Shown one piece after another: positions 15,830 through 39,847 of a DNA stretch of 39,847 nucleotides; within the stretch, counting starts at the first letter, position 1, and each line of letters starts with the position of its first letter. This DNA is from a virus: positions 1 through 39,847 of the IMG/VR virus record IMGVR_UViG_3300031228_000003; one strand, 5' to 3'. A program made the translations under genes and the position numbers. The notes under the pieces were generated by a model. That model saw only the letters and a program-made list of their open reading frames with translations. It had not been told where the DNA came from and searched no databases.

Positions 15830-15869
15830 TCCCCCACTAACTATAACATAAATCCGAAGGGTGATATAA

Positions 15870-16114: not shown

Positions 16115-16117
16115 TAC

Positions 16118-16158: not shown

Positions 16159-16168
16159 TGGTGAGGAT

Positions 16169-17057: not shown

Positions 17058-17377
17058 TGTCCATGACAACCGAAGAAGCCACCTTGTCAGTTATCATTGC
17101 CGCAATCGGGGGTCTGTTTATGTTCCTGTTTGCCGCACTCGGGGTTGTCTTTATGTACATTCGACACGTCCGGGAACGGGAGAGTCGGAAGGAAGAACAG
17201 ATACTTCATTCTCACACCTTGCACGCAAACCACGACCAACGGATTACCATGCTGGAGCGCGAAGCAAAGGACCTGAAAGAATGGATCACGGGTATTCGGG
17301 AAGAGCTTCGCACCGTTCACCGTGATGTACAGGAATTGACGAAACACGTAATGTCAGCACTGCGGGACCCCCGATGA
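17057..17377 (+). CDS. single-pass membrane protein, holin or i-spanin-like
   Basis: N-terminal TM helix LSVIIAAIGGLFMFLFAALGVVFMYI followed by a charged coiled coil. It is coupled by ATGA to the endolysin gene. Confidence 0.45.
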   Translation: MSMTTEEATLSVIIAAIGGLFMFLFAALGVVFMYIRHVRERESRKEEQILHSHTLHANHDQRITMLEREAKDLKEWITGIREELRTVHRDVQELTKHVMSALRDPR

Positions 17378-18480: not shown

Positions 18481-18491
18481 CGTTATACCCC
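18473..18491. repeat. PAL copy CCCT-ATAACGTTAT-ACCCC
   Basis: Exact core. It contains the TAA stop of the endolysin gene. Confidence 0.9.
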
Positions 18492-18492
18492 T

Positions 18493-19146
18493 ATGTCCTG
18501 TTATACGGATATATCGCTACTCGCCCACCTGACACGGGGGAAGGACACCGAAACCATTATTCTGAAATCCATTCCGGATAGCATGATAATGGAAGAGGGG
18601 GGATTGCTGGAGTTCCTTGTCGATGAAATTCGGGACCGTATTGATTGTCTGCAATGCGAACTGATCGAGTGTTGCAACACCGAACCGGAACCGATCGATT
18701 ACGGTTCCCAAGGGATTCTAACGACCGGAGACACGACAGAGGTTAACAGTGCCGGACCGACCCCCGTACAATGGGATAACGTTGTACTCTTGGACGGGGA
18801 AGATTATGAGCACATCACGGACATATTCGGTTCCAGTAAGATAAAGGTGAAGCGTGCCGGACGGTTCCGGATCGATTCGATGATAACGTTCGTATCGGCA
18901 ACAACCGGAGTAAGTATAGCGGTTCAGGTTCAGGTTAATGGCATACCTGTTCCCTACGGGGTCGGACGGCACGGGGTAGTTTCGGGTGGAGTAAATGACA
19001 AGAGTAGTTCCTCTATTTCGATTATAGCGGACCTGCTCGAAGATGACGAAATCGAAATCGTCACGTTCCAGAATGGAGCGGCCGGAACCGCTACACACGT
19101 AGCACAAGAATCGAATCTGTTACTATCACGATTCCCGCAAGCGTAA
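18493..19146 (+). CDS. virion protein with C1q/TNF/BclA-CTD-like C-terminal jelly roll (putative fibre or receptor-binding protein)
   Basis: The C-terminal pattern GRFRIDSMITFVSA..VSIAVQVQVNGIPVP....SSSISIIADLLEDDEIEIV....NLLLSRF resembles BclA/C1q-type domains as recalled. Confidence 0.4.
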   Translation: MSCYTDISLLAHLTRGKDTETIILKSIPDSMIMEEGGLLEFLVDEIRDRIDCLQCELIECCNTEPEPIDYGSQGILTTGDTTEVNSAGPTPVQWDNVVLLDGEDYEHITDIFGSSKIKVKRAGRFRIDSMITFVSATTGVSIAVQVQVNGIPVPYGVGRHGVVSGGVNDKSSSSISIIADLLEDDEIEIVTFQNGAAGTATHVAQESNLLLSRFPQA

Positions 19147-19149
19147 ATC

Positions 19150-19701
19150 ATGGCATGTGCTAAGAAGGTCCGCAAATACGACTATGCGGGAAGCGAACGG
19201 ATACGGGTACGGGGAACAACCGGGGGTGCAAATACATTCGGTCCCGGAAGTACTCTGTTCACGGCCGGGGACATGTTCAGTCCCGTACTTACGTTTGCGG
19301 ATCTCGGTTCGTGCAATTGTGGCGACGAACACGGATCGGGATTAATCGAGTCCGTGATAATCACGGAAAACATTTCGACTGACCCTGTAGAGGCAAGCGG
19401 TTTTCAGGAACCCGACCTTACGCTATGGCTAACGAACGTTACTCCCGGAACCGTTCCGGCTGTAAATGATCCGATGTCGGGTATTACGATACTGAATAAC
19501 GAACTCGTCGCGATCGTGCCGTTAGGTGGCATTGTCTGGCACGAAGTAAATTCGGGAATGTCGGTCGGACAACTTGCCGTAAGCGTGCCGTATATCATAC
19601 CCTCCGGAACGCTCTACGGGTTCCTTGTCGTCAATGATGCTCCGGACTGGACCCAATCGACAACGGCGTTTTCAATTGATATATTCGCCACGAAGGACTA
19701 A
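19150..19701 (+). CDS. hypothetical virion protein
   Basis: 183-aa ORF in the structural block. Confidence 0.55.
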   Translation: MACAKKVRKYDYAGSERIRVRGTTGGANTFGPGSTLFTAGDMFSPVLTFADLGSCNCGDEHGSGLIESVIITENISTDPVEASGFQEPDLTLWLTNVTPGTVPAVNDPMSGITILNNELVAIVPLGGIVWHEVNSGMSVGQLAVSVPYIIPSGTLYGFLVVNDAPDWTQSTTAFSIDIFATKD

Positions 19702-19730
19702 CCAACAACATACACTAAGGGGGCCGAATC

Positions 19731-20429
19731 ATGGCTAAAGTAATGGGACGTCCGACAGTGGGCGGACGGCATGCGGGATGGATCATTTCACTTACCGTGA
19801 CCGGATCGGAGATAACCGGTAACGGCGCGGATGCTTACGAGTTCGATCACTTGGAAAATGCTGAAGTTGTCTTTGCAATCAGTGCGGAAGAGTCGGCAGC
19901 CGAACAGGGCAAGATTGAAAAGGTCGGCATCGATGGGATTACTTTCGAGACTGCGGAAGTAAGCGAGCGGATAGATATTATCTCCGGAGAAACGGTATCG
20001 GGTGGGGATAGTACAGCCGGACGGGAAAGCCAGATCAAAGTAACGTCCCTTGCAACCGAAGCGGGCGCGGACGTCAGCGCAATTCAGGCATTCCGCGGAA
20101 AGGTTGTACTTATGGTTCTTCCGCACGGGAAAGCATATTCAGCCGGATCGGAAGCGGGACTAAAATACTATTGCCTCATCGGCAAGGTGTCGAGCATTAC
20201 GGGACCGTCGTTCGCAGGTAACGACGTAGCCACGATTGCGCTCGAAGTAACTGGGGGAAAGACGTACACCGAAGACGCCGGAACGGAAATATCGGCAGCC
20301 GTCACAACGTTTACGGCGATTACTCCGGTCGGTCAGGACCCATTGGAGGTTACGATTGCAGCCCCTGCCGGTGCCGCAGTCGATGCCGTCAAGACCGTTC
20401 TTCTTACGGGGGATATTGCGATCGTCTAA
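19731..20429 (+). CDS. abundant structural protein candidate (possibly major tail protein)
   Basis: It has a strong AGGGGG Shine-Dalgarno. It is followed by a PAL copy and then a canonical intrinsic terminator, as is typical of highly expressed structural genes. Confidence 0.4.
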   Translation: MAKVMGRPTVGGRHAGWIISLTVTGSEITGNGADAYEFDHLENAEVVFAISAEESAAEQGKIEKVGIDGITFETAEVSERIDIISGETVSGGDSTAGRESQIKVTSLATEAGADVSAIQAFRGKVVLMVLPHGKAYSAGSEAGLKYYCLIGKVSSITGPSFAGNDVATIALEVTGGKTYTEDAGTEISAAVTTFTAITPVGQDPLEVTIAAPAGAAVDAVKTVLLTGDIAIV

Positions 20430-20447
20430 GCCCATAACGTTATGGGC
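20430..20447. repeat. PAL copy GCCC-ATAACGTTAT-GGGC
   Basis: Exact. It starts immediately after the TAA stop of gene 19731..20429. A canonical terminator follows 28 nt later. Confidence 0.9.
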
Positions 20448-20474
20448 TACATAGCAACTGCGGGTTACTCTACC

Positions 20475-20508
20475 ACGGGGACGGGAAACACCCGTCCCCG
20501 TTTTACTT
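20475..20508 (+). terminator. intrinsic terminator
   Basis: Stem ACGGGGACGGG (20475..20485), loop AAACA, stem CCCGTCCCCGT (20491..20501), then a TTTT run overlapping the last stem base, then ACTT. Confidence 0.8.
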
Positions 20509-20524
20509 CAATGGAGATTATATA

Positions 20525-20911
20525 ATGCGAATTTATAGCGAAGGAGTCGGAACGGGTGGAGCATTCACGGCCGACGGTTCAGAGATAACGATTCAGGGTC
20601 TGAACGCTTCCCGCTTTGCCGTTGACCTTTCGACGTTTACCCGTGCTCGGTTGTCAGTGAACCTCTACAGCTTTAGCGGTCCGGCATCATCCGCAAAGTT
20701 TGAAATCGAATACTCTATCAACAACGGGACGAATTGGGGCGCAACGGGTGTCGAGGTTGAGGCGAACAATACGGGTCTATTCGTCGGAGAGTATACGTCC
20801 CTTCCGTCAAGCGTTGACGCTGACACTATTTTCCGGATCGTTACGAGTGACGAAACCGGCAACGGGGGCGCGTCGCTCTGGCCAGTCTTTATCGACCTTG
20901 AAGTAAAGTAA
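20525..20911 (+). CDS. hypothetical beta-rich virion protein
   Basis: 128-aa ORF with a GGAGA Shine-Dalgarno. Confidence 0.55.
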   Translation: MRIYSEGVGTGGAFTADGSEITIQGLNASRFAVDLSTFTRARLSVNLYSFSGPASSAKFEIEYSINNGTNWGATGVEVEANNTGLFVGEYTSLPSSVDADTIFRIVTSDETGNGGASLWPVFIDLEVK

Positions 20912-20917
20912 GTTCCA

Positions 20918-20935
20918 GCCCATAACGTTATAGGG
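20918..20935. repeat. PAL copy GCCC-ATAACGTTAT-AGGG
   Basis: Exact core. Confidence 0.9.
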
Positions 20936-20948
20936 TAGGGGTTCAGAA

Positions 20949-23516
20949 GTGCCGGAATATAAGACGACATACACGATAGAGGAACCGGAGATTCCCGGCG
21001 GGACTCACAGTATTATCATTTTCAGTGATACGTACGATGGACTTTCCAACGTCAACACGGCGACAGAGGTTTCCGTGTTCGAAGTTGAATCATCGACGGA
21101 AGCGTTGGAAGGTGACGCGGGAGTTGTTCAGGTAAATAACATATCGTTTCTCGTCGATGGGCTACGGGCGTATAATCAGGACGACCGGGACGCAATAGAT
21201 TTTGTATTGACCGCACGGGACGAAGATACGCTAATCTATTGCGCCCGGTTCATCCTCTACGGACCGGGACCGTATACCATCGTCAATTCCGATTTTGCAT
21301 TTCGGGGAAGAGTCGGGACGGATTTCAGTTGGGACGACCCCCCCAAGTGGGAAGGGGATTTATATAGCAGTGACCCGGCACCCGTCCGCACGTGGAAAGG
21401 TGAGGCGTTTACTATCGACCTTGGAACAATGCTGAACGAAACCGTAGGGGAAATTGTCTCCCGGTTGCGCTTCGGTGTTGACGAGAACGGGGATATACTT
21501 TACGGTGAACCGGAAACCGAAGATTATACGAACTGGATAGCGACGAACGTTGACGATCGGCAAGCATACTATTTATCCGAAGGGGTGGTGGGGAGTGCTC
21601 CCGCACTTGCCGCAAAGTGGGCGAACCTCGTGAGTCTGGAAGATGCTTTTCAAATGCTGTTTGATAATACGAAGTTGAATGCACTCACCCTTACGTTCGT
21701 TCCGACAACGTTGGATATGCAAGCTATCCCGGCACGCTTTCACGCGATCCGGGAATTTGACGACCACGGCAAGGCGTACCGTTACGTACATTCCACCGAA
21801 TCGTATAACCTGTTAGGTGTGCCGTTCCATTACAAGGGAGATAGTGCCAAACTTGGATTCGAAACTACGAACCCGGCTATAACGAGTCCCGGAATATATC
21901 AACTCAAAACCGGAGGGGCGGGATACGGGGTGATGAGCGTAGCCTATAGGCTACTCCACCCGTTCAGGGGTGACGACGATCCGGACGTAAATTTTTCATG
22001 GTGGAACCTGACGGTTGCGGAAGTGCTGGTACGTGTTGCCTATTCTCTCGGTTGTACGCTCGAATTCATTTATACAAGTCTGAATACCGTTGATGTACAG
22101 TTTAACCCCCGAGCATTGAAGGGAACCGTAGAGACATTTATACGGGATGCCTACAGCGCAAAGGGAAGCACAAAACCCTATTCGGTAGACTCACAAGGTA
22201 AGTACGTCGGAGCATCGTTCCGACTTGCAACCGATGGGGCGGAGTACTATCGCCATACAAAAGACGGTCTGGAATCAACGTTCAACCACCGGACGCAACA
22301 GCGAAGCGAGCCGAAACAGTCCGACCGTTATTTACCGTTGACTATATCGCCGACGTTCTGCTTGTTCGACGACGACACGGGGAAAGATATTTTTTCGAAG
22401 ATCTTAGCGGAGGGGATCGGGGCGAAAGTGTACGGGCGGAACATGCACGATGTTCTGCCGAACCCGATGTTACCCCACAACATCGTAATGCACGAAGGGG
22501 CAACAACCGAAGCAATGGGGAGGGGAGCGAATGCCGACGGGGTGGGCGCGTGGAAATCGCAGAACCTTGAAGGGGTACACACCGGGATTTATATCACGTG
22601 TCCCGGTTTGCCGTCGATCCGTTACCCGTCGCTTCCCGGCAACCTCGGAGGGTCGTACCCTTGGGGAGAAGTGGGGGTTGATGGGGTTGATATATACGCC
22701 CCCGTCTCTATCTGTGCAATCGACTATAAAACCCCTAACGGCACGGTAATAAAAAAGCTGTTCTATCAGCTATCGGAATACCTTTCCGAAGTATACGAGA
22801 ACGACAAGAAGTATTACGAGGGGGCATATACATTCAACGTTCCGGGACTATCCGGATTCCGACTTGCACCCGGCGGAACCGATAGCTGGAAAAACATCCG
22901 TGCCGGAAATCTCGTCACCTTGGACGGGGTGGAATGGATCGTTAATCGGGTTGTGCGCAAGTTGACGGAAACGGAAATTACATTGCACGCACTCGAACAG
23001 TATTCGGGTTTCGTTATGTCTACGATTGATCCGGATACCGAAGAACCTCCGACACCCGGAAACACTTTCGCGGAAGTGCCACTGGACGAGGAACGTAAAC
23101 AGGCTGTCAACCCGTCGGTGCAATTGCGACCGGTTGACGATGAATACATTCCGCTTATGCTGGTAAGTGAACTAACCGACGGAGAGGCCACGGTATCGCA
23201 GGCAACGTCGGCACATTACGGGAGGGTGCGGGGAATGAACATCACAGAGTACGACGTTGAACTATCGCAGGAAACCAATACGCTTTCCATCCTTGCCGGG
23301 GGAACGCTGAACGTTGGGGTTGCCATTGTTACGGCACTCGGATTGCAGCCGGGGGACCGGCTGTATTTACGCAACGGCACGGACCCCGTGAATTGGTCCA
23401 ACGTCCCCCCTGATGGGTCGGACCCCGACGAAGATCTTGTATACGAATTCGGACGGGTGAACCCTGACGGTCTATCTATCCGGATCGAACCGAAAGAGTA
23501 CAGGCGGTTTATCTAA
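20949..23516 (+). CDS. large virion protein (tail tip or fibre candidate)
   Basis: 855-aa ORF with a GTG start after TAGGGG. It is the second largest gene in the structural block. Confidence 0.6.
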   Translation: MPEYKTTYTIEEPEIPGGTHSIIIFSDTYDGLSNVNTATEVSVFEVESSTEALEGDAGVVQVNNISFLVDGLRAYNQDDRDAIDFVLTARDEDTLIYCARFILYGPGPYTIVNSDFAFRGRVGTDFSWDDPPKWEGDLYSSDPAPVRTWKGEAFTIDLGTMLNETVGEIVSRLRFGVDENGDILYGEPETEDYTNWIATNVDDRQAYYLSEGVVGSAPALAAKWANLVSLEDAFQMLFDNTKLNALTLTFVPTTLDMQAIPARFHAIREFDDHGKAYRYVHSTESYNLLGVPFHYKGDSAKLGFETTNPAITSPGIYQLKTGGAGYGVMSVAYRLLHPFRGDDDPDVNFSWWNLTVAEVLVRVAYSLGCTLEFIYTSLNTVDVQFNPRALKGTVETFIRDAYSAKGSTKPYSVDSQGKYVGASFRLATDGAEYYRHTKDGLESTFNHRTQQRSEPKQSDRYLPLTISPTFCLFDDDTGKDIFSKILAEGIGAKVYGRNMHDVLPNPMLPHNIVMHEGATTEAMGRGANADGVGAWKSQNLEGVHTGIYITCPGLPSIRYPSLPGNLGGSYPWGEVGVDGVDIYAPVSICAIDYKTPNGTVIKKLFYQLSEYLSEVYENDKKYYEGAYTFNVPGLSGFRLAPGGTDSWKNIRAGNLVTLDGVEWIVNRVVRKLTETEITLHALEQYSGFVMSTIDPDTEEPPTPGNTFAEVPLDEERKQAVNPSVQLRPVDDEYIPLMLVSELTDGEATVSQATSAHYGRVRGMNITEYDVELSQETNTLSILAGGTLNVGVAIVTALGLQPGDRLYLRNGTDPVNWSNVPPDGSDPDEDLVYEFGRVNPDGLSIRIEPKEYRRFI

Positions 23517-23519
23517 CGA

Positions 23520-23537
23520 CCCCATAACGTTATAGGC
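23520..23537. repeat. PAL copy CCCC-ATAACGTTAT-AGGC
   Basis: Exact core. Confidence 0.9.
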
Positions 23538-23540
23538 TTT

Positions 23541-23993
23541 ATGGCACTCTGGGAAAACATAGTATGGCTACGGTACGTCAAGCCGGACGGCTCAACGGTT
23601 GCCCATCGATTCAACGCTCTGGAAAACCCCCGTGTTACCTACGCAAAGGACGGGGCGATAATTCAGGGGAACCGGTCCGCCCACCCGTTTACGTACTATC
23701 GGACGGCACGGTATATCGTCCTGATTAGTGCGGATGAATTGTATATGCAGAGCGCTTACGAGTTTATGATATCGTTCTGGTATGCAAACGAGAAGCATAT
23801 AGCAATTGACAGCTCCGTAACTGAACCGCTCGACACGGAGTTTATTTCCGTATACACGGACGGGGGGGATGCTCCGGAGGAATTTATCGAAGATGTTCAG
23901 GAACTTCCCGACTGGACACTGGAACTTTTCGAAACCCGACGTCGGGTCTGGAACTCCGGAACGAACCTCTGGGAACCCGTCTATCTTGCATAG
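23541..23993 (+). CDS. hypothetical tail-module protein
   Basis: 150-aa ORF bounded by PAL copies on both sides. Confidence 0.55.
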   Translation: MALWENIVWLRYVKPDGSTVAHRFNALENPRVTYAKDGAIIQGNRSAHPFTYYRTARYIVLISADELYMQSAYEFMISFWYANEKHIAIDSSVTEPLDTEFISVYTDGGDAPEEFIEDVQELPDWTLELFETRRRVWNSGTNLWEPVYLA

Positions 23994-24010
23994 CCCATAA
24001 CGTTATGGGG
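23993..24010. repeat. PAL copy GCCC-ATAACGTTAT-GGGG
   Basis: Exact core. It shares its G with the TAG stop of gene 23541..23993. Confidence 0.9.
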
Positions 24011-24020
24011 TACAGATATT

Positions 24021-24530
24021 ATGGCACTGGTAACACGATCGAAAGCGAGCATAACGGATACCCGAATCTTCCCGTTCCACGGGATACAGATATACGCGGG
24101 ACCCGATCCGGATGATCTCCACCTTCTGATACGGACGGTTGTAGCCGGTTCGACCTATACACTATCGGAGGTCCGCAAAGCAGGGCGGGTGGTCGCGTTC
24201 ATTATCAACGGGTCGGCACGGGTAGTGTATAACGACTACAATTCCCCCGACTTCATAAAGACATTCGAACGAATGTCTTTTCAGAAGATCACGGATATAA
24301 ATATACTGCTCGAACCCCATAGCGGACAACCGGGAGGGGATAGCCGGACGATAAGCAACAAGCGTGCAACCGTCCGCAATTGGCGGATGAGTTGGGAAAT
24401 TCCCGCACAAGGGGATACCAAACTACCCGATATGGTAATAACGTTTCGGGGGGTGTTCAGCGTTGATGCTCTTAAGGGATTCAACGAAGCGTATGACCTT
24501 GACGATACGGAAAGGCATTTCTTCAGCTAA
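24021..24530 (+). CDS. hypothetical tail-module protein
   Basis: 169-aa ORF. Confidence 0.55.
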   Translation: MALVTRSKASITDTRIFPFHGIQIYAGPDPDDLHLLIRTVVAGSTYTLSEVRKAGRVVAFIINGSARVVYNDYNSPDFIKTFERMSFQKITDINILLEPHSGQPGGDSRTISNKRATVRNWRMSWEIPAQGDTKLPDMVITFRGVFSVDALKGFNEAYDLDDTERHFFS

Positions 24531-24550
24531 TCAAAAACCGAGAAACCGAA

Positions 24551-24946
24551 ATGAATGCTTTGGCCGTATGGAAAGAATATCGTCTCTTCCTGCAAGGTGC
24601 GGGGATCAAACGCAAAGAGTTCCTTACCCGTGCAATGCAGAGCGGGAACGCTGAACTATTCGCTGACCTGATTAAGGAAGGGTGTGTAAGGATAGCAGCC
24701 GGGGATACATTGGCGGATCTTGAACGGACACGGGGATACGTCCCGTACTCAATAGCCCAAGTAATCAGGGGTTCGCAATCAACGGGGTTGACACCGTGGC
24801 GAATACTGGTGGCGTCCGTTACTATCCTGAATATACATAGCATCCCGACCCGGTTACGTGTCGAGCTATTATCTACCCTGTTCGGGGGTGGTATCATACA
24901 GGATGCCGGACCTGATTTTATACTTACGGCATTCAATGCCGAATAA
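24551..24946 (+). CDS. hypothetical tail-module protein
   Basis: 131-aa ORF. Confidence 0.55.
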   Translation: MNALAVWKEYRLFLQGAGIKRKEFLTRAMQSGNAELFADLIKEGCVRIAAGDTLADLERTRGYVPYSIAQVIRGSQSTGLTPWRILVASVTILNIHSIPTRLRVELLSTLFGGGIIQDAGPDFILTAFNAE

Positions 24947-24963
24947 CCAAACCGAGAAAGACA

Positions 24964-25644
24964 ATGACAGACAAACCGAAGAACGCGATTAACATTGAAT
25001 CACCCGACGGGGATACACTCGAAACCCTTGCTACGGCAATTGACGTAACGATGTTCCCGGATCAGGGGCACCCGGACGAAACGACTCCACCCGACGACGT
25101 GGTATTGTCAAGTGAAATTGCAATACCGATAGAGCACCCCGAACGAGGGCCGGAAACATGGGTGTTCAATTGGTCGGAGATTTCCCCGATCCAACATATC
25201 AGAGCAAGCAAACTGCTGTTCTACGAACACGAATTACTTGTGAACCCTCTTCCATCCCATCGACAGAATAAACTATCCGGTCTCTACGAAATTGAGATGG
25301 AAATGTTTTCCGTTCTCCTTCTCCGGAAAAACGAAGATGGGACGTTAGATAGACGGACACCCATGGGGCGGGTTAATCAGGAAGCCGAAGCACTGGAAGC
25401 AATCTATTTGATGAAGGGTTCCGATTACGATAAACTCCGAATCATAAAAAAAAATTTGTGTTTGCTATACGGTGTGCCAAGCGTAGACAGGACATTGGAT
25501 TTCAAAAAATTAACCCGAAGTCTGGCGGGATACATATCAGCTTTCTCTCACCTGAAATTGAGCGAAAGCGATATATCGACCAACTCCGAAACGACGGATA
25601 CGGGACAACATGGAAACGAAGAGCAATCGAACAGGGAGCAATAA
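24964..25644 (+). CDS. tail assembly chaperone (lambda gpG analogue)
   Basis: It is the last gene before the tape measure. It contains the slippery run A AAA AAA, and an overlapping -1 frame is open. Confidence 0.6.
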   Translation: MTDKPKNAINIESPDGDTLETLATAIDVTMFPDQGHPDETTPPDDVVLSSEIAIPIEHPERGPETWVFNWSEISPIQHIRASKLLFYEHELLVNPLPSHRQNKLSGLYEIEMEMFSVLLLRKNEDGTLDRRTPMGRVNQEAEALEAIYLMKGSDYDKLRIIKKNLCLLYGVPSVDRTLDFKKLTRSLAGYISAFSHLKLSESDISTNSETTDTGQHGNEEQSNREQ

Positions 25645-25787
25645 GCGATCCGTTATTGTTCTTCGTTGCACAGGGTGATCCGTCCGTAATCGACACTATC
25701 CGTTATCTACGGATGCCGGATTTTCTCGACACACTCGACACCGTCTGTTCCCTTGTGGGTCAGCGGTTAGCGTCCCGAATGTTTTAG
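24964..25787 (+). CDS. tail assembly chaperone, -1 frameshift fusion product (lambda gpGT analogue)
   Basis: The -1 frame is open from 25434 to TAG 25787. The zero-frame reading ATA AAA AAA AAT at 25444..25455 gives a perfect X XXY YYZ heptamer. The frame offset of track ORF 25458..25787 relative to 24964 is +2, which equals -1. Confidence 0.6.
25446..25454 (+). promoter_or_regulatory. programmed -1 ribosomal frameshift slippery site (A9 run)
   Basis: AAAAAAAAA at 25446..25454 is followed by TTT. A second, weaker site CAAAAAA lies at 25503..25509. Confidence 0.6.
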
Positions 25788-25804
25788 CCCATAACGTTAT
25801 GGGG
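25787..25804. repeat. PAL copy GCCC-ATAACGTTAT-GGGG
   Basis: Exact core. It shares its G with the TAG stop of the frameshift ORF. Confidence 0.9.
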
Positions 25805-25817
25805 TCGGACGATTCGA

Positions 25818-25835
25818 CCCCATAACGTTATGGGG
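25818..25835. repeat. PAL copy CCCC-ATAACGTTAT-GGGG
   Basis: Exact core. It is linked to the previous copy by the small hairpin GGGGTCG-GACGAT-TCGACCCC. Confidence 0.9.
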
Positions 25836-25861
25836 TCTTCCGACAACACACGGCAAACGAT

Positions 25862-28800
25862 ATGCAGATAGAAGTTGATTTCGTACCGAAGGGGGCAAAC
25901 CTCCGTGCCTTTTTGCAGAGCTTGGCTAAACAGCTAAAAGCCCTTGGGTTAGATACATCCGCTTTCGACGTCGATCAAATCGCAAAGGATTTCGAGGAAG
26001 CTGCATTCTTTGCAGGTGAAGCGGGAAAAAAGATATCGGAGCTTGAAGCGGAATTAGATTCCCTGCAAAGTGGGGGTGATAAAGCCGCTAAGACATTTGA
26101 ACGACTCGGTAAGTTCGGAGCATTGGAGGGGATCGGTTCAGGGCTGAACGCCTTTAACGATAAGCTACAGCAGAACGCGGAAGGTATGCGGTTGCTCGGT
26201 TTGCGATCGGGTGCAACAGGTGCGGAACTTGAACAACTGGAACAATCGGCATCCAATGTATTTAGCCGATCCGTAGGGTTCGAGACATTTAACGAAGCGA
26301 CCGAAGCGATAGGGGTAGCACACAGAACGTTAAGTGAATTTCTTGACCCGGCACAACTCGAAGATTTCGTAGTCAATATGTCGGGTGCCGCAAAGGCATT
26401 CGATCAGGATCTGAATAACGCGCTACTTAAATCAACCTCCCTTATCAAAGCCTATGGTTCGGAAGCTGCAAACGTAATCCCGCTTGTTATGCAGCAGGCG
26501 GGGACGTCCGGCGATGACGTGTTAGATACGCTTGCAGAGTATGCCCCCCTCATGAAGGAAGCGGGGATAAGTTATGAAGAGTTCGCGGGACGGATGATAG
26601 CGGGAGCGCAAGCGGGGGCGCGGGATACGGATAAATTGGCCGACAGTATTAAGGAGATGCAAATACGTTTGCAGGCCGGGGACACGACGAAAGCCCTTAG
26701 CGAAATAGATACACCGATCACCGAAGCGATTGCAGGTATTGTAAAAGCCGGAGAGGAGGGAAGCAAATCAGCCGGGCAGGTAATGTCGGAAACCGCGCAA
26801 GCGATCGAAACCGCTTTCGATGCCGGACAGATTTCCGAAACGATGCGCTCACAGCTGCAGGTTGCTATAGCCGGAACACCGGCGGAAGATCTTGGGGCCG
26901 ATCTGTATGCAGATATATTTACGGCCCCTATCGATCCAAGTATAATTCAGGGGCAAGCGGCCGACCTTACGGCAATGCTACAGGAAAGTATACAGCCCCC
27001 GTCCTTTACCGAAACAATCGGCCGTGAATTAGAGGCGACCTTTTCGGGGTTAGGTGCTACGATAGGTCCGCTACTTGGACCCACTGCACAATTCGCGCAA
27101 ACCCTTGGAACCGTTGGCCCTGCACTTGCCGGGATGGATCTTGCAAAACATGCAGGAAGTGCAACGCAATTTGCGGCAAGTATACTATCAAAAGTTATTC
27201 CGGGACTTGGGGCGCAACTTGCCGCAACCAATGCAACTACGATCGGAACAAAGGCACTATCTGCCGCACTGTTAACTAACCCGTTTTTCCTTGGGGGTGC
27301 CGCTATACTCGCAGGGGTTGCGGCCGCATTTGTATTACTGAGGGATAATACAAAGTCGGCCGACGATGCCGTTGCAGACCTGAACGAATCCACCGACCGG
27401 TTCAACGAAGTAACCGAAAAGGCGAAGGGTGTAAAAACTGCAAGTGATAACCTGCGGAAACTTGCCGACGAATACGATGACCTATCTAAAAAGACCGATC
27501 CGGAAAGTCAAAAAAGATTCGCACAAGTCGCCACGGAATTAGATAGTAAGCTCCCCGGATTCTCTACGAAGGTTGACGAACTCGGGACCAAGGGTGAATT
27601 ACTCGGACAGAAATATCAGTTTGCGACCGGTCAGGTTCGCGCCCACGCTGACGAAATGGACCGGTTAGCGGATCAGGGCGTCGCGGACGCGCAAAAAATG
27701 CAGACCGATCAGGTCAAGGCCGCATTAGATACATGGGATAAATTAGAGGGTGAGATTGCGGGAGCGAGGGAAGAGACTGATAAATATCAGGCATTGGTAG
27801 ATCAGGGATTAGGTGACGAAGGGGGCGGGATATTTAGCGATACTTACGCAGAGAATGCAGCCGACTCAAGGGCCGAGTTAGTCAAATATGGACAAGAGCA
27901 AGAGAAGGTAAAGGAAGGTCTTAAAGACTGGATCAAAGAGCAGGCGGCACAAGGCAAGAGCATGGAGGATGTGGCCGAAGCTGCAGGCCGATCGGTCGAA
28001 GATATAGCGTATCTCGGCGGAGAAATGTTTGCAGCACAAAAGGAAGCAGCCGCAATCGGTGGCGAAATGCGTAACGTTGCACAGGAGACAAGAGCAACGG
28101 CCGACGAAGCTAAGAAATTAGGTGCGGAATTTCAGGCAGCAATGGCTGCGAGTGCGGACCTATCGACGGCAAGTATAGCGGCACTTGCACAGGCGTTGTT
28201 CAACTTGGAGAACACAAAGAATGCCGATGCCGAAACACGCGCACTGCTGCAAAAGCAGGTAGACGATTTAACGGTAAGAGCGCAATCGGCCGTGAAGTCT
28301 GAAACCGAACTTCAGGCATACTTAAAGCGTGCCGAGAAGTTAGCGGGTAAGGTAACCAGAACGACAACACGCACACAGACCGAACGGGAAAAGCGATTGA
28401 TCGACGCTAAAGACGTCGTGGACGATATAATAAAAAGCCTGAATAATGAATTGACCTTGCAAGGGCTATCCGACGGACTCGACCGGGAGTTATCGGAAGT
28501 CTTTCAGGATCGAGAGGCGGACTTAGCGGCACTCAAAGAACAGGCTGAAAAGTTGCGGGAAGATTACAAGAAGTCTTTGAAAAAAGATTCCGGATTGATA
28601 TTCAAAAACGCTGACCTGATTAAGTCACTTGAAGAGGGAGGGGAAGCGTATAAAAAGGTTCTCGAAAAATATGCGAACATCGAACGGGAAGTAACGATAA
28701 ACTTCTTTCGCGAAACGCTTGCACAAAAGCGGGAAGAGCAGGAAAAGGAAAACGAAAAGCTTGCAGCCGATTACGAACGGCAAGCGGGACAGATAGCGGC

Positions 28801-30268
28801 AATCGACGCGACATCAATTGCGAAGCGAATAGGATTGCTAAGCAAGGCAAATGCACTTGAATTCGAAAACCGCAGACGGTCGATTGTCGAGAACAACGAA
28901 GCCCTATTGTCTCTTATGGCTGAGCAGGCCAAAGAGCAACGCAACGTCGACACGGCCGAAACCGAATCGGCGCGGGATGCCGCAAAGATTCGGGTCGACG
29001 AATTAACCAAACAGATAGAAGCACAAAAGGCACTTATTCAAAGTTCCGCTTCCGAGATGTTCCGACTCCGGGACCTGAACGAAAAGCTATCGACCGACCT
29101 GACGGATACCGAAAAGAAAGAGACCGAAGAGCAGATAACGATAATTAACGAGAAGCTGGCGACGATCGACGAAAGTACACGATCGGCCGCGCAGGATTTA
29201 CTCTACGCACAAGTCGAGTACGCGGACGAGGAAAGGGGGATATATAAAGAGCTTTCGGAGTTCACCCGGAAAGAGCGTGTCGACAAACTGATAAAAGAGA
29301 ACATGGCACGCGAAGCCGAAATGCAACGACATAACGACGAGATGAGTAGACTTGTCGGAGTTATCGTTTCGGTTACCGAAGCAAGGGGAGATAGGTTAAT
29401 CGGGATTCAGGAACGGCAAGCGTTAGAGCAACTCGAAGAGACGAGAGCACGGGATATAATTTCGGAAGAAGAGTATGAACGGCGTAAGACGGAAATTGCA
29501 AGTGCCGCAGAGTTGGACCGTGAAGCGTTGCGCTCCCGTGCACGGGGTATCGAATTAGAGGCAGAGCGGCAAGCGGTCTTACAACAGCTTGCCGCCGAAC
29601 GGGAATCTACCCAAGCACTGTTAGACGAAGCGATTGCAGCCGGGGACGTGACCGAAGCGGATAACCTACGCGACAAACTCAAGGGAATCGAGGATGATAT
29701 AAAGGAGCGGGGAAAATTCATTACGGCTGTTGCCGCCGAACTGCAGGACGCGTTAACCGAACTCTTTACAAATCTTGTGGCGGGAGACGAAGAAGATATA
29801 AAGCGTCCGTTTAAAAAGGCGTTCGGTGTATTGGTCGGAGCGTTGCAACGTCTGGCCAGTGCCAAGATAACAGAGGTCTTGCTCGGCAGTATCTCCGGGG
29901 TATTGGGATTACCGGGACTTGTCGGGAGTCTTGCCGCAAAGGGAGTAATCGAGGGAATAGTAAACTCGCTGCTCAATCCGATATTCAGTTCTCTCACGTC
30001 ATTCGCGGAAGGGTCCGGGCCCCTGACGTCCCCGCAATTGGCGATCGTCGGAGATGCTCCCGTTCCGGAACGTGTACTAAGGGACGATCAATTGCAATTA
30101 CTCATGACTGCTGCAAGTGCACGGGGTGCGGAAATGCTATTGCCCCAACTGCAAACGCTGATTCAATTGTTCAGGGAGTATCCCGACCGGATAGCAATTA
30201 GCGAAGGGGAAACGGCTGATGCCGTCAACCGCGCTAATCAACGGAGACGGAAAGGACTCGTCGGATAA
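25862..30268 (+). CDS. tail tape measure protein
   Basis: 1468 aa, largely alpha-helical (A/E/K/L/Q rich) with a central hydrophobic segment TNPFFLGGAAILAGVAAAFVLL. It follows the frameshifted chaperone genes. Confidence 0.85.
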   Translation: MQIEVDFVPKGANLRAFLQSLAKQLKALGLDTSAFDVDQIAKDFEEAAFFAGEAGKKISELEAELDSLQSGGDKAAKTFERLGKFGALEGIGSGLNAFNDKLQQNAEGMRLLGLRSGATGAELEQLEQSASNVFSRSVGFETFNEATEAIGVAHRTLSEFLDPAQLEDFVVNMSGAAKAFDQDLNNALLKSTSLIKAYGSEAANVIPLVMQQAGTSGDDVLDTLAEYAPLMKEAGISYEEFAGRMIAGAQAGARDTDKLADSIKEMQIRLQAGDTTKALSEIDTPITEAIAGIVKAGEEGSKSAGQVMSETAQAIETAFDAGQISETMRSQLQVAIAGTPAEDLGADLYADIFTAPIDPSIIQGQAADLTAMLQESIQPPSFTETIGRELEATFSGLGATIGPLLGPTAQFAQTLGTVGPALAGMDLAKHAGSATQFAASILSKVIPGLGAQLAATNATTIGTKALSAALLTNPFFLGGAAILAGVAAAFVLLRDNTKSADDAVADLNESTDRFNEVTEKAKGVKTASDNLRKLADEYDDLSKKTDPESQKRFAQVATELDSKLPGFSTKVDELGTKGELLGQKYQFATGQVRAHADEMDRLADQGVADAQKMQTDQVKAALDTWDKLEGEIAGAREETDKYQALVDQGLGDEGGGIFSDTYAENAADSRAELVKYGQEQEKVKEGLKDWIKEQAAQGKSMEDVAEAAGRSVEDIAYLGGEMFAAQKEAAAIGGEMRNVAQETRATADEAKKLGAEFQAAMAASADLSTASIAALAQALFNLENTKNADAETRALLQKQVDDLTVRAQSAVKSETELQAYLKRAEKLAGKVTRTTTRTQTEREKRLIDAKDVVDDIIKSLNNELTLQGLSDGLDRELSEVFQDREADLAALKEQAEKLREDYKKSLKKDSGLIFKNADLIKSLEEGGEAYKKVLEKYANIEREVTINFFRETLAQKREEQEKENEKLAADYERQAGQIAAIDATSIAKRIGLLSKANALEFENRRRSIVENNEALLSLMAEQAKEQRNVDTAETESARDAAKIRVDELTKQIEAQKALIQSSASEMFRLRDLNEKLSTDLTDTEKKETEEQITIINEKLATIDESTRSAAQDLLYAQVEYADEERGIYKELSEFTRKERVDKLIKENMAREAEMQRHNDEMSRLVGVIVSVTEARGDRLIGIQERQALEQLEETRARDIISEEEYERRKTEIASAAELDREALRSRARGIELEAERQAVLQQLAAERESTQALLDEAIAAGDVTEADNLRDKLKGIEDDIKERGKFITAVAAELQDALTELFTNLVAGDEEDIKRPFKKAFGVLVGALQRLASAKITEVLLGSISGVLGLPGLVGSLAAKGVIEGIVNSLLNPIFSSLTSFAEGSGPLTSPQLAIVGDAPVPERVLRDDQLQLLMTAASARGAEMLLPQLQTLIQLFREYPDRIAISEGETADAVNRANQRRRKGLVG

Positions 30269-30281
30269 TTAACGACGATAT

Positions 30282-30315
30282 ACACGACGGGGGTTTTCGG
30301 TTTCCTCCGTCGTGT
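30282..30315 (+). terminator. hairpin directly after the tape measure gene
   Basis: ACACGACGGGGG pairs with CCTCCGTCGTGT: 12 bp including one G-T, with a 10-nt T-rich loop. There is no 3' T tract. Confidence 0.5.
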
Positions 30316-30317
30316 CC

Positions 30318-30361
30318 GGGAGGGGGTGGGGTCCGGATGTGCGGTCACCCTACCCCCTCCC
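30318..30361 (+). other. 15-bp G-rich/C-rich hairpin
   Basis: GGGAGGGGGTGGGGT (30318..30332) pairs with ACCCTACCCCCTCCC (30347..30361) with one G-T pair. Confidence 0.6.
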
Positions 30362-30372
30362 CATATCGGTCC

Positions 30373-30386
30373 CCTACGATCGTAGG
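30373..30386. promoter_or_regulatory. operator-like palindrome CCTACGATCGTAGG
   Basis: Perfect 14-bp palindrome. Its core TACGATCGTA recurs at 30689..30698 and 38062..38071. Confidence 0.55.
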
Positions 30387-30403
30387 AAATCCCCGTTTCG
30401 AAA

Positions 30404-30426
30404 CCCTCAAAATTTGCGCAGAATCA
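30404..30426 (+). promoter_or_regulatory. CCCTC-box copy CCCTCAAAATTTGCGCAGAATCA
   Basis: One of four copies of a 23-nt motif. The others are 9310..9331 (minus), 16118..16140 and 35539..35561. Confidence 0.6.
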
Positions 30427-30446
30427 GCCCATAACGTTATACCCCC
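30427..30446. repeat. PAL copy GCCC-ATAACGTTAT-ACCCCC
   Basis: Exact core, within composite element copy A. Confidence 0.9.
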
Positions 30447-30553
30447 TCAAAATCTTGCAGAAAACCGCGATTTCTTGAAGCCACTCGGATAGGGGTAGAC
30501 CCGGAAAATCCCGTCACGGGCTTCTTTGGGGCCCCTAAATTTGGGAAATTTAA

Positions 30554-30573
30554 GGGGGTATAACGTTATGGGG
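30554..30573. repeat. PAL copy GGGGGT-ATAACGTTAT-GGGG
   Basis: Exact core. It has the same form as copy 73..92. Confidence 0.9.
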
Positions 30574-30612
30574 TCTCCCCTCGAAAATTCCTCGGTCTCC
30601 CCTCGAAAATTC
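30572..30612 (+). repeat. tandem direct repeat GGTCTCCCCTCGAAAATTC x2 (22-bp period), iteron-like
   Basis: Identical 19-mers at 30572..30590 and 30594..30612. A degenerate third unit CCCTCGATTTCTCC lies at 30615..30628. Confidence 0.8.
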
Positions 30613-30686
30613 TTCCCTCGATTTCTCCACGGAATCCACGATTCCCGAACTTTTTTTCGATCGCTGTCGATTTTTCTTGCGTGTGT

Positions 30687-30699
30687 CCTACGATCGTAG
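30687..30699. promoter_or_regulatory. operator-like palindrome CCTACGATCGTAG
   Basis: 12-bp palindrome CTACGATCGTAG at 30688..30699, about 70 nt upstream of gene 30771. Confidence 0.55.
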
Positions 30700-30770
30700 T
30701 ACCTTTGTACTAAGTCAGAGCGGGGGACAGTCTCCCGCAAGACCCACAAATCACAATCGGAAATTTTACC

Positions 30771-31082
30771 ATGACAGAGCAGACGACCGCAAAGCCGAAT
30801 TTTATCACCACGATTGAGCAGGAGTTTTCATCCGCATTTGGAGTGAGCTTCCGAGCCGAGGAGACGACGTCTCTCGGAGAGGGCGACCGGACTTGGCAGA
30901 TGTACAGTGACGATTTTGATTACGGTTGCTACATCACAGAGCCGGATTTCCCGGAGGGTCACCCGGCACGCGGGGATATTATGATTGCCCCGGCATTCGC
31001 GTCGGATGGTCAAATGCTCGGAAATCGCCCCTACTCTACGGCACGTGGTGCGATTGCGGCTATAGAGCGACACAGAGCGTAA
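30771..31082 (+). CDS. hypothetical protein
   Basis: 103-aa ORF with a CAAATCACA leader at 30747..30755. Confidence 0.55.
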   Translation: MTEQTTAKPNFITTIEQEFSSAFGVSFRAEETTSLGEGDRTWQMYSDDFDYGCYITEPDFPEGHPARGDIMIAPAFASDGQMLGNRPYSTARGAIAAIERHRA

Positions 31083-31155: not shown

Positions 31156-31800
31156 ATGGAAAATTCAAACCTCGACATCTACTTTGCTCCGGAGCTTGAC
31201 CGCTCACAGTACACCGACACGGCCCCCGCTATCGACGACGCCTACCCCCGCTATGTGCACTATCAGGGACAGCATGAGCCGCAGGATGTGCGCCTAATCT
31301 TGACGCAGGAGGGCACGGTATACGTCGATTACGATCCGATCATCGGGAGCGGGACAACCTCGGACCTGCATCACGATATCGATCTGGCGTGGAGCGGAAT
31401 CCCGTCGGAGACAACAGGAGCGGAGATAAATGAATTTCTACGGGACGTCACCCCACTGATGGAACGGGTACATGCCGGACACTCCGTAGAGTGGGACGGG
31501 AGCAACCAGGTCGGGCGCCTTGACGATGACGCCACAAAAGCCAGCGATGAAATTGATAGAGCGATTGCGGATAATTTCGAATGGCACGAACCCAAATTCG
31601 AAATGTATGATCCGGCCGATTTTTTCGAGGATGGTTTATCGGACCTTAAAGCCGATACGACGGACGACGAAATTAATGCAATCGCGAAGCGGGAGACCCT
31701 TGAGGCGTGGACAAGTGCGGTACTGTTTTCAGATGATGCGGCGGAAGCCCTGACGGAAATTCGTGATCGACTGAAGGAGCAGGCCGAAGAAGAGGCGTAA
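31156..31800 (+). CDS. highly acidic hypothetical protein (DNA-mimic / anti-restriction candidate, speculative)
   Basis: 214 aa, very rich in D and E throughout. Codons are visibly more C-ending than in neighbouring genes. A CAAATCACA leader lies at 31125..31133. Confidence 0.55.
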   Translation: MENSNLDIYFAPELDRSQYTDTAPAIDDAYPRYVHYQGQHEPQDVRLILTQEGTVYVDYDPIIGSGTTSDLHHDIDLAWSGIPSETTGAEINEFLRDVTPLMERVHAGHSVEWDGSNQVGRLDDDATKASDEIDRAIADNFEWHEPKFEMYDPADFFEDGLSDLKADTTDDEINAIAKRETLEAWTSAVLFSDDAAEALTEIRDRLKEQAEEEA

Positions 31801-32779: not shown

Positions 32780-34177
32780 ATGCCGAAGGCAAAGACCGCA
32801 ACCAAGACCAAATCAACCAAGACAAAAACCGCAAAACCGGAGGGGGGAGAACCGACAACGAAGAAAGATAATTTGACCGACGCACAACGGGGGGCGATGG
32901 AGGAACTGCAATCTATCGGAGCGGAAACCCCGACCCGTAGCAGTGCGGCGCACGGGTACGTAATTCAAATGAATTCCATCGAACCGCAACGGGTGCCACT
33001 GGGAACGATATTCTACCATCCCGGCCGTGATCCGCTAATGACCACCCGAAAAATTACACAGACACGGGTAGGGTTCGATAAGGAGTATGCAGTGGAGGAG
33101 CTGGCCCCGTTTCTCCTGGAAGATCCGAATTTTGACTTCCCGGCAATTCAGATGATATATAATCCGGATACGGGATTGACGTACATAGCCGACGGATTCC
33201 ACCGGCTAACCGCTTACCAGCATGTAGGACGGGAGACAATCCCCGTACGTCTGGCACTTGGAACCGAGGAAGATGCGATTAAGGTGGCGACCGGAGCGAA
33301 TGCAGAACACGGTCGACGTCGCACCCGTCAGGATATACGCAAGGCCGTAACTATGCTTTTGCAGAATCCTGAATTCGCCAAGCGGTCCGATACGTATATA
33401 GCGAATTGCGCTAAGGTGTCGCAGCCTTTCGTCGGCAAGATGAGGAAGGAAATTTTCGGAGACGATACACCGACCGAGCGTATCGGCACGGACGGCAAAA
33501 CGCACAAGGTTAGTACGACTCCGGTCGGATCGAAACCGAGCAAAGCGAAAGAGCCGGACGTAATCGAGACACGACCGGAGAATAAATACATTACCGAAGA
33601 TGCCAACGGGGATATTCTCCCGGACCACCTACAGCGTGTGTTCACGTGCGGCAAAGATGTTGCCGCAAAGGTGAGTGAACTGAAACGGTCGGCAAAGGCA
33701 CTAACGGAAATTGTCTCCGCTTATCAGAGCGAAGACAACGAAGGAACGCTATATGCTCCGATCGTTGACGGAATCGAAACCGCACTCAAGCAGATTAATT
33801 CTGCACTGAACCGGCTGAACCGGGAGTCACTTCCGAAGTACATTTCCCCGTACACGAAGGGACGGGAGAACGAAATGTATCCCGACTCGGAGGAACATCT
33901 TGCACCCGTCGAAGGGTATGAGTATCCGGACGGGACACGGGTAAATATCGGATGGGTTTCCGATACGCAGTATAAGGAATCCCCCGAAGATCTTCGTAAC
34001 GATCCGGATCTATTGCATTACGACTATGATTTCGGAACGGAGGAAGTGGGGGATGAGGAAGCCGACGACGTCGGCACGGTAGAGGAAGGGGAAGAGATTG
34101 AGGTCGAAGCCGATCCGGACCTTATGCAGGATTCCCCGGATGAAGAGGAAGAGCCAGCGATAAACGCATTTGCGTAG
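32780..34177 (+). CDS. ParB-like N-terminal domain protein with acidic C-terminal tail
   Basis: ParB/Srx-type motif YIADGFHRLTAYQHVGRETIPV is followed by ATGANAEHGRRRTRQDIRKAV and an HTH-like segment. The N-terminus is lysine-rich and the C-terminus is strongly acidic. Confidence 0.7.
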   Translation: MPKAKTATKTKSTKTKTAKPEGGEPTTKKDNLTDAQRGAMEELQSIGAETPTRSSAAHGYVIQMNSIEPQRVPLGTIFYHPGRDPLMTTRKITQTRVGFDKEYAVEELAPFLLEDPNFDFPAIQMIYNPDTGLTYIADGFHRLTAYQHVGRETIPVRLALGTEEDAIKVATGANAEHGRRRTRQDIRKAVTMLLQNPEFAKRSDTYIANCAKVSQPFVGKMRKEIFGDDTPTERIGTDGKTHKVSTTPVGSKPSKAKEPDVIETRPENKYITEDANGDILPDHLQRVFTCGKDVAAKVSELKRSAKALTEIVSAYQSEDNEGTLYAPIVDGIETALKQINSALNRLNRESLPKYISPYTKGRENEMYPDSEEHLAPVEGYEYPDGTRVNIGWVSDTQYKESPEDLRNDPDLLHYDYDFGTEEVGDEEADDVGTVEEGEEIEVEADPDLMQDSPDEEEEPAINAFA

Positions 34178-39450: not shown

Positions 39451-39458
39451 ATTCACCA

Positions 39459-39498
39459 CCGGTTACGGAACAACCGTAAACGGGTAATCCGTAACCGG
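39459..39498 (+). terminator. hairpin after the initiator-like gene
   Basis: CCGGTTACGG (39459..39468) pairs with CCGTAACCGG (39489..39498). There is no T tract. Confidence 0.45.
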
Positions 39499-39499
39499 C

Positions 39500-39660
39500 T
39501 AATCCCGAACTACTAAATACTGAGGGATATACTAAAGACTGAAGTACTACTCTTCTTCTCTTACTGTACTTGAATTCTATATTCTCAGAGTATTCTCTTT
39601 CCGTTAAATACGGAAGCGCGCTGCGCCGAATTTTCAAAATTTCAAAGACTCGAAAATCCG
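39500..39660. other. AT-rich repeat-bearing region, replication origin candidate
   Basis: GC content is visibly lower here. ACTAAATACT/ACTAAAGACT lie at 39512 and 39531, TATTCTC x2 at 39580 and 39591, and TTTCAAA/TTCAAA at 39631 and 39641. The region is directly downstream of the initiator-like gene. Confidence 0.35.
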
Positions 39661-39720
39661 GGAGCGGGATTCGGATGATCGATAAGGCTTACACACAAGG
39701 CGAATACACTAACTCCCTAT

Positions 39721-39847
39721 TGCCTTACTGAACACCGATCCATACCACCGGAGGGAGAGGGTTCGGGATCGGAGGGAGTTCCGCCGGGAACAGGGGGTAT
39801 AACGTTATGGGGTGAATAGGATGAGTGCAAAGGAACTTGCAGAAGAA
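39721..39847. repeat. terminal overlap identical to 1..127
   Basis: Direct comparison of both ends shows 127/127 identity. Confidence 0.95.
39793..39812. repeat. PAL copy (duplicate of 73..92 within the terminal overlap)
   Basis: It lies inside the 127-nt overlap and is not an independent copy. Confidence 0.9.

Follow-up and report, generated by a model that had tools for sequence, protein, structure and literature searches.

The non-coding left end of phage T7 serves early control and carries the tandem promoters A1-A3, and Cluster A mycobacteriophages possess an operator and stoperator system (gp71 in phage L5). The locus presented here shares features with both. It is a 502-bp region located directly behind the tape measure gene of an uncultured siphovirus-like phage, at positions 30269-30770 of the window, i.e. 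the whole 39,847-nucleotide stretch that was analysed (IMG/VR virus record IMGVR_UViG_3300031228_000003). Like T7-type early control regions, it appears as a several-hundred-bp non-coding head of a set of early genes, carries repeated elements of a putative control function and follows just after a presumable stop of transcription. Unlike the T7 region, it is devoid of recognisable sigma-70-type promoters, its elements are new, and it is situated inside a circular map after the tape measure gene rather than at a genome end. With the Cluster A stoperators it has in common a short asymmetric site, here the box CCCTCRAAA, that is used in a single orientation relative to transcription and occurs both scattered between genes and at the candidate early control region. 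All seven exact copies of this box in the genome are intergenic and sense-oriented, and four of the seven are found in the 502-bp region. In contrast to the Cluster A system, the phage has only about ten boxes when weaker copies are included, half of them lie in the region and they are coupled to a palindrome termed PAL; moreover, neither a repressor as in a temperate phage nor an integrase was recognised in scans against PHROGs and Pfam.

In the interpretation that we prefer, and to which we assign a probability of about 0.55, the late transcript ends in the region at two strong hairpins, which are followed by arrays of binding sites controlling the early genes. The region is flanked by the end of the late operon on one side and by a co-directional early block on the other, and downstream of the tape measure gene this strand carries early, recombination and replication genes for the next 17 kb. 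Because of this position, it must end or mark late transcripts and should hold signals for early expression. The interpretation builds on observed properties of the locus, namely its anatomy, the missing coding signal, hairpins that favour one strand and the place in the gene map.

The region is genuinely non-coding DNA. With 502 bp it is the largest intergenic stretch of the genome, as the preliminary description of this DNA had stated, and the runner-up measures 370 bp. No gene was called within it in the one public assembly (Logan) whose fetched stretch covers the region and which equals the window base for base there in the same orientation. Open reading frames (ORFs) inside the region, including one of 100 aa on the minus strand, reached codon-usage scores of -0.04 to -0.29, whereas the minimum among the 56 genes is 0.085, and none of these ORFs matched a PHROG family. 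Small ORFs within the region were therefore rejected as genes on the basis of codon usage and the missing PHROG matches. The region and the adjoining first early gene contain the following elements.

30275-30368, + strand: compound double hairpin, both stems closed by a CGATAT/ATATCG outer helix
30282-30293/30304-30315, + strand: hairpin 1, 12-bp stem, 92% complementary
30318-30332/30347-30361, + strand: hairpin 2, G/C-rich, 15-bp stem, 93% complementary
30373-30386, no strand: left unique palindrome CCTACGATCGTAGG, candidate operator for a dimeric regulator
30395-30467, + strand: composite module A (composite element 30403-30467) with a box, a PAL and a second box
30532-30556, no strand: inverted box-like half sites CCCCTAAATTT ggg AAATTTAAGGG, 91% complementary
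30553-30574, no strand: PAL copy B AGGGGGTATAACGTTATGGGGT, weak hairpin (-5.8 kcal/mol)
30572-30628, + strand: tandem array of two GGTCTCCCCTCGAAAATTC and one degenerate CCCTCGATTTCTC, three sense boxes, candidate cooperative binding array
30631-30657, + strand: weak hairpin GGAATCCACGATTCC, 5 nt, then seven T; -7.8 kcal/mol, z -1.9, terminator-like by pattern only
30686-30699, no strand: right unique palindrome TCCTACGATCGTAG (CCTACGATCGTAG at 30687), 72 bp upstream of the first early ATG
30720-30755, + strand: leader of the first early gene, an 8-bp GC hairpin (30720-30738) and then CAAATCACA at 30747
30771-31082, + strand: first early gene, 103 aa, alpha/beta protein

The double hairpin has two properties of an intrinsic terminator, as it is a stable GC stem-loop structure behind the last gene of an operon and prefers the transcribed strand. 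Its first stem begins 14 nt after the stop codon of the tape measure gene. The predicted RNA fold amounts to -62.4 kcal/mol (z -7.4) on the + strand compared to -53.5 kcal/mol on the - strand, a difference of approx. 9 kcal/mol. In both stems, and likewise in the third GC hairpin at 30720-30738, the sole imperfection is a G.T wobble on the + strand that turns into an A.C mismatch on the - strand, indicating a function in the + strand transcript. The late head-tail transcript would end within 30275-30368 in two adjacent, very stable GC-rich hairpins that might act by halting RNA polymerase or by shielding the 3' end of the transcript, and that might insulate the early genes against read-through from the late operon.

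The second part, from about 30370 to 30770, would then be a non-coding early control region for expression of the rightward block beginning at 30771. We infer that this block has its transcription start within the region and that proteins bind the repeats as operators. The 13-14-bp palindrome at 30373 and 30686 is unique in that only two copies exist in the genome at 0-1 mismatch, both in the region; a third match (38060) requires 3 mismatches. The copies are 314 bp apart, corresponding to approx. 30 helical turns, and might represent an operator pair for a dimeric regulator, with DNA looping as a possible consequence. Composite module A consists of GTTTCGAAAC, box CCCTCAAAATTTG, CAGAATCAG, PAL AGCCCATAACGTTATACCCC (a variant that does not form a hairpin), box CCCTCAAAATCTT and GCAGAAAAC, in that order. 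It has an inverted copy at 9271-9326, in the intergenic region of the portal and Mu-F genes, that is 93% identical over 56 nt and keeps the same orientation relative to transcription. A poorly structured spacer separates module A from the pair of half sites. In the tandem array, a 19-mer occurs twice without change (30572 and 30594; 22-bp period); no such repeat is expected in shuffled sequences, and it is found only in this region. Altogether, the region holds five sense boxes of the CCCTCRAAA type, three of them in the 22-bp (two-turn) array, an arrangement that might reflect cooperative binding by a protein reading an asymmetric site. A PAL core or a different palindrome precedes every exact box of the genome at a distance of 1-8 nt. 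In the minus-strand operon, an exact box at 9284 and a one-base-shorter copy CCCTCAAATTTG at 9331 are sense-oriented as well, and weaker single copies are present in four other intergenic regions. The two copies of PAL would constitute a third kind of site in the control region. The 22-mer of PAL copy B recurs once more in the unique genome (72-93), its copy at 39792-39813 being due to the assembly overlap, and copies with one mismatch are located at 3094 and 9289.

The hairpin and CAAATCACA leader in front of gene 30771 would fit the typical arrangement of the early genes of this phage. All eight genome copies of CAAATCACA, often extended to AATCAAATCACA, are on the + strand. Seven of them (445, 3865, 30747, 31125, 31919, 32351 and 34247) are positioned 9-31 nt upstream of start codons, exclusively in the early block, and the eighth copy (36398) falls within gene 36394, directly behind its called start; a variant is found at 38677. 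Usually, CAAATCACA is preceded by a PAL or a GC hairpin. It might function as a leader of early genes or as a signal for either processing or translation.

The preliminary description proved accurate in its details, all listed motifs being present where it had placed them, and overstated in its summary. Its claim that the region concentrates every repeat family of the genome is true for the CCCTCRAAA box, the unique palindrome pair and the tandem repeat. It does not apply to PAL, of which two of 29 cores are in the region compared to about 4.2 expected from its share of intergenic DNA, to CAAATCACA, which with one of eight copies is at expectation, and to CGATCG. The latter follows a run of seven T at 30651-30663 and is not enriched in the genome (30 found, 26 expected in dinucleotide-preserving shuffles). 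Of the at least five boxes CCCTC(A/G)AAA that had been counted, four are exact, with one tandem duplication giving rise to two of these, and the remaining one is degenerate.

The few comparative data agree with the preferred interpretation; the closest relative found is L109, whose tape measure protein is 42% identical. The intergenic region at the same place in L109 measures 204 bp. It combines a small hairpin with a canonical rho-independent terminator and a non-coding leader of approx. 120 bp, and is followed by unrelated small genes. Among the functions offered in the preliminary description, the regulatory switch at the late/early boundary is the one favoured by the gene map, by the strand-biased double hairpin and by the terminator and leader of the closest relative.

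Several findings weigh against the proposed terminator and early control region. The second stem of the double hairpin is followed by CATATCGG instead of a U-tract, so that the structure is not a canonical intrinsic terminator, and it was not reported by a terminator pattern scan. Sigma-70-type promoters (TTGACA/TATAAT-like, 16-18 nt apart) were not found between 29800 and 31300, where 0.9 are expected. Genome-wide, such matches do not exceed the level of shuffled sequences; the host may use another promoter type. With matches absent in the region and not enriched anywhere in the genome, a promoter was not located. The scans against PHROGs and Pfam also recognised no Cro-like protein and no phage RNA polymerase, in addition to the missing integrase and repressor. 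The protein encoded by the first early gene, gp30771, does not resemble DNA-binding proteins as judged by its AlphaFold model and Foldseek. Finally, genes begin 12-74 bp after the tape measure gene in L110 and L111, and the long region is therefore not conserved in the lineage. Promoters of Bacteroidetes type and archaeal type as well as PAL serving as a -10 element were examined by eye only; none fitted consistently, and these candidates were dropped.

In the gene map, the genome is organised in three transcription blocks, two rightward and one leftward.

13030-30268, rightward: head-tail (late) block with a protease or scaffold gene, Phage_cap_E capsid, Mu gp36-like, GH19 endolysin, an 855-aa protein and, as last gene, the 1468-aa tape measure
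25862-30268, + strand: tape measure gene, last of the late operon (phrog_1272, PF10145; 210 homologues)
12937-7983, leftward: packaging block with candidate small terminase, large terminase, Mu-type portal, Mu F and a virion morphogenesis protein
30771 through the map origin to 7875, rightward: early block of small genes and recombination/replication genes (DUF8280 protein, ParB-like, Erf, helicase, HTH_36 protein, DnaC/IstB-like loader, C5 methylase)

The window represents a complete circular map of 39,720 bp. Its first 127 bases equal its last 127 bases, and three public assemblies carry the phage with sizes of 39,750, 39,847 and 39,861 bp, in each case 39,720 bp plus an overlap of about the k-mer size of the assembler. 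Since, moreover, no mismatch to the window occurs in the fetched stretches of the three assemblies, the repeat at the ends is a product of the assembly.

A replication origin, in which the 22-bp units act as initiator iterons and the T-rich stretch 30646-30680 as unwinding element, had also been considered for the region and is unlikely in the light of the present data. Iteron origins such as lambda ori and that of plasmid R6K resemble the region in having direct repeats of approx. 20 bp that recur about every two helical turns. Two exact units and a degenerate one with a 22-bp period, runs of seven and five T just downstream of them and the border to the recombination/replication block are in accordance with this idea. 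However, only 2.5 units are present, the GC content in 50-bp windows across the region ranges from 42 to 70% without any AT-rich window that might serve for unwinding, no DnaA box (TTWTNCACA) is present in the region, and none of the adjoining genes shows an initiator signature; 9-11 kb lie between the region and the genes for the HTH_36 protein and the DnaC-like loader. Unlike what is expected of iterons, the box is also found as a single copy in front of structural genes. A better candidate is the 370-bp intergenic region between the HTH_36 gene and the helicase-loader module (39451-39720, continuing to 100). This region comprises the 100 bp with the lowest GC content of the genome (39511-39610, 31%, more than 4 standard deviations below the mean), a 19-bp imperfect palindrome (39459-39498) and direct repeats of TACTAAAKACTGA 19 bp apart.

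Doubtful to a like degree is the view that the region gives rise to a separate non-coding RNA or to a long, structured 5' leader, for instance an antitermination RNA of the HK022 put type or a small RNA ending at 30631-30657. The RNA fold of the whole region is stable on both strands (z -6.4 on +, -4.2 on -), the hairpin and T run at 30631-30657 match a terminator at the pattern level, and the + strand orientation is shared by all boxes and GC hairpins. Two sources account for the low fold energy, though: the pair of terminator hairpins and base pairing among the repeat copies. Shuffled sequences fold just as well as the sub-regions 30466-30535 and 30700-30775. A search of Rfam 15 gave no match in the window at the gathering score and, apart from sub-threshold hits of microRNA models on the GC hairpin with E 0.4-0.9, the best in the region, none even at E<=1. 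Relatives close enough for a covariation analysis were found neither as DNA matches in the phage collection nor in IMG/VR scans with neighbouring proteins and PAL, so no homologous region was at hand for such an analysis.

Before a possible nucleoprotein function is considered, PAL itself has to be described. Its core ATAACGTTAT is present in 29 copies, usually flanked by CCC/GGG, each of which lies between genes or shares a few bases with a stop codon. PAL occupies 25 of the 43 intergenic regions, corresponding to about one site per 1.4 kb, with examples at 427, 2681, 4853, 6700/6726, 7872, 12961, 16101, 25791/25822 and 35522. Four more intergenic cores have one mismatch (1230, 3847, 5205 and 32226). 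Sites are found at tandem, convergent (7872) and divergent (12961) gene junctions alike. L109, L110 and L111 lack PAL, and no palindrome is over-represented in them. The TAA stop codons of genes 101-430 and 7576-7875 are part of the PAL core (427-436 and 7872-7881). The nearest published parallel are the 17-bp dyad repeats 5'-TGTTCGGNNNCCGAACA of Cluster O mycobacteriophages, which occur in more than 30 copies (PMC4351075). Both are short palindromes in approx. 30 copies that are located mostly between genes or at gene starts; they differ in sequence and host group, and the 10-bp PAL core has no spacer and variable flanks.

An RNA hairpin or terminator was rejected as the function of PAL. Position -4/+4 does not covary (8 GC, 3 GG, 3 CC, 1 CG), there is no bias in stability towards the sense strand (14 versus 12, p 0.64), and nine of the 29 copies, copy A among them, remain unfolded on the sense strand, while copy B folds only weakly. 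The 10-bp core is invariant including the would-be loop, and its flanks vary without covariation. The invariant core, the non-covarying flanks, the lack of a sense bias and the unfolded copies make PAL fit a double-stranded DNA site that is read by a dimer.

The commonest 18-mer of PAL, GCCCATAACGTTATGGGC, is found in public genomes and metagenomes mostly within canonical plasmid parB genes of filamentous Cyanobacteria, Thermus and Calidithermus, where it encodes AHNVMG. This parB family of Cyanobacteria and Thermus accounts for 235 PLSDB records. The deduction of a cyanobacterial host from 15 cyanobacterial entries among 20 genome hits was discarded, as these are mostly the AHNVMG coding sequence of ParB and no other DNA is shared; likewise, an enrichment of CGATCG as a cyanobacterial signal vanishes with dinucleotide-preserving shuffles. 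We compared 13 parB genes, 11 picked by protein similarity and the two originals found through the DNA word, at the following loci.

L026, 1182-2117: parB gene
L105, 2369-3238, - strand: parB gene
L112-L122: parB loci

The peptide at the palindrome varies among the 13 genes (NDNVII, TDNVIS, TNNVIG, GHNVMP, DNVIH, THNVMG, TQNVLG). In 12 of them the DNA still forms a perfect palindrome, 10-24 bp long and with AAC|GTT, the N-V codons, in the middle, whose arms change symmetrically through paired codon changes; the PAL core of the phage corresponds to the centre of this palindrome. Symmetric changes in spite of a varying peptide show that selection acts on the DNA or RNA palindrome itself. It might represent a parS site within the gene, or else a hairpin at the place where the helix-turn-helix (HTH) region of canonical ParB aligns.

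Further occurrences of related palindromes were noticed. Two loci, L096 (769-1003, Scytonema hofmanni UTEX 2349) and L108 (2595-2817), contain 6-7 copies of CCCATAACGTTATGGG / CCTATAACGTTATTGG in a centromere-like spacing of 39-57 bp, and these arrays may lie inside an ORF with HNVMG/NNVIG repeats. Short contigs of one study (Ga01631xx; L019, L028, L036, L038, L041, L043, L044, L047, L058, L074 and L078) carry the exact PAL 18-mer twice, approx. 400-520 bp apart and flanking small ORFs. Each copy is placed within a longer imperfect palindrome, and the contigs have no other DNA in common with the phage.

Plasmid RK2 with its KorB operators and phage N15 with its dispersed centromere sites each use a ParB-family protein that recognises a palindrome at numerous intergenic or promoter positions. 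The phage resembles them in having a ParB-like gene and 29 palindromes. In contrast to RK2 and N15, no ParA or KorA partner was found in the phage, the density of sites is far higher, and the connection between ParB and PAL is a candidate one only. The ParB-like gene (32780-34177) encodes a DGFHR motif and, after a ParB N-terminal-like domain, an HTH-like stretch that was read by eye; only three distant homologues of the protein are known from our searches. PAL extends to a palindrome of 16-18 bp, the size of a parS site, a ParB-like gene resides on the same replicon, and sites clustered near par genes are not seen. For the megaplasmid of Thermus HB27, a binding site of ParB within parB itself has been demonstrated (PMC4409726). 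The published HB27 parS, AAGGACGCGTCCTT, is a different palindrome, and because it lies 62 codons downstream of the N-V palindrome in parB, the latter is a putative parS. There is a small but real chance that PAL is a parS-type site and that the genome is loaded at every gene boundary by a clamp of the ParB family, either a ParA-less protein of the phage or a plasmid ParB. If so, the 502-bp region would be the meeting point of a genome-wide ParB layer and of phage-specific operators setting early transcription.

We attach a low probability to the extension of this idea by which the 502-bp region is itself part of a ParB-type nucleoprotein system, i.e. a platform for silencing, compaction or partition with the PALs as parS-like sites for a ParB of the phage or of a host plasmid. 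The ParB-like gene, the parS-like size of PAL, the coincidence of its core with the centre of the palindrome preserved in plasmid parB genes and its behaviour unlike that of an RNA hairpin speak for it. It is opposed by the low number of PALs in the region, by the lack of a detectable ParA gene, by a recognition region of the phage protein that is unlike that of plasmid ParBs and by the other palindrome that serves as parS in HB27 (PMC4409726). The ParB reading bears on the region only through its two PAL copies.

A packaging (pac) site or genome terminus, which had been listed as an option as well, is very improbable. Headful packaging, as suggested by the Mu-like portal and terminase, needs a pac site, and the region is repeat-rich and non-coding. 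Yet pac sites are normally located in or beside the small terminase gene; the candidate small and large terminase genes (11098-12937) are on the minus strand, 17 kb away from the region, and the circular, identical assemblies with their k-mer-sized overlaps and arbitrary break points carry no signal of a terminus. It is hardly credible that the 326-bp segment between the two CTACGATCGTAG palindromes is a mobile element, similar to a miniature inverted-repeat transposable element (MITE), or an invertible one: its perfect 14-nt inverted arms with 298 nt between them conform to the size of MITEs and invertible promoter segments, but the inverted repeat is trivial because the arms are palindromes themselves, the interior is made of the phage's own motifs, neither a target-site duplication nor a recombinase or transposase was found, the Logan assembly has the same orientation, and the 326-bp element was not found elsewhere.

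Concerning the genes that would be controlled from the region, homologues of gp30771 were found only as repeat units within proteins of 413-1711 aa. Weak hits (E 0.07-0.2) to a p7-like RNA polymerase regulator of Xp10 were not backed by the AlphaFold model (predicted local distance difference test, pLDDT, 73) and Foldseek, and this assignment was dismissed. The second downstream gene (31156-31800) encodes a DUF8280 protein. In the phage contigs L009, L010 and L012, DUF8280 genes are also located just beyond the tail genes, and some of the proteins are fused to, or adjoin, XRE-type HTH domains, which hints at a regulatory or immunity role of the second downstream gene. Elsewhere in the genome, an uncalled ORF from 6756 (6756-7061) follows directly after a double PAL and the ribosome-binding site GAGGGAAG and might be a missed gene; the coding score of 6756-6993 is 0.09 and hence borderline. 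The methylase gene probably starts at ATG 3119 instead of the called 3047, in which case the PAL at 3101 becomes intergenic. The divergent junction of the packaging and head genes (12938-13029) contains one PAL (12961) and the sole good intergenic sigma-70-like match, TTTACA-18-TATATT, which ends 5 nt before ATG 13030 and thus implies a nearly leaderless mRNA.

In summary, the 502-bp region is most likely an ordinary kind of phage junction between terminator and early control built from new motifs. The unusual element is the genome-wide palindrome PAL, and the region is not its focus. The larger question is which factor reads the 10-bp palindrome that marks 25 of 43 intergenic regions, and whether this reader belongs to the ParB family. 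The phage is an orphan with no DNA similarity to any deposited phage in the phage collection, a portal less than 31% identical to those of isolates and only distant relatives at the protein level, and the region helps in its annotation. With three separable families of sites within 400 bp, the palindrome pair, the oriented box array and PAL, it also provides a compact test bed.

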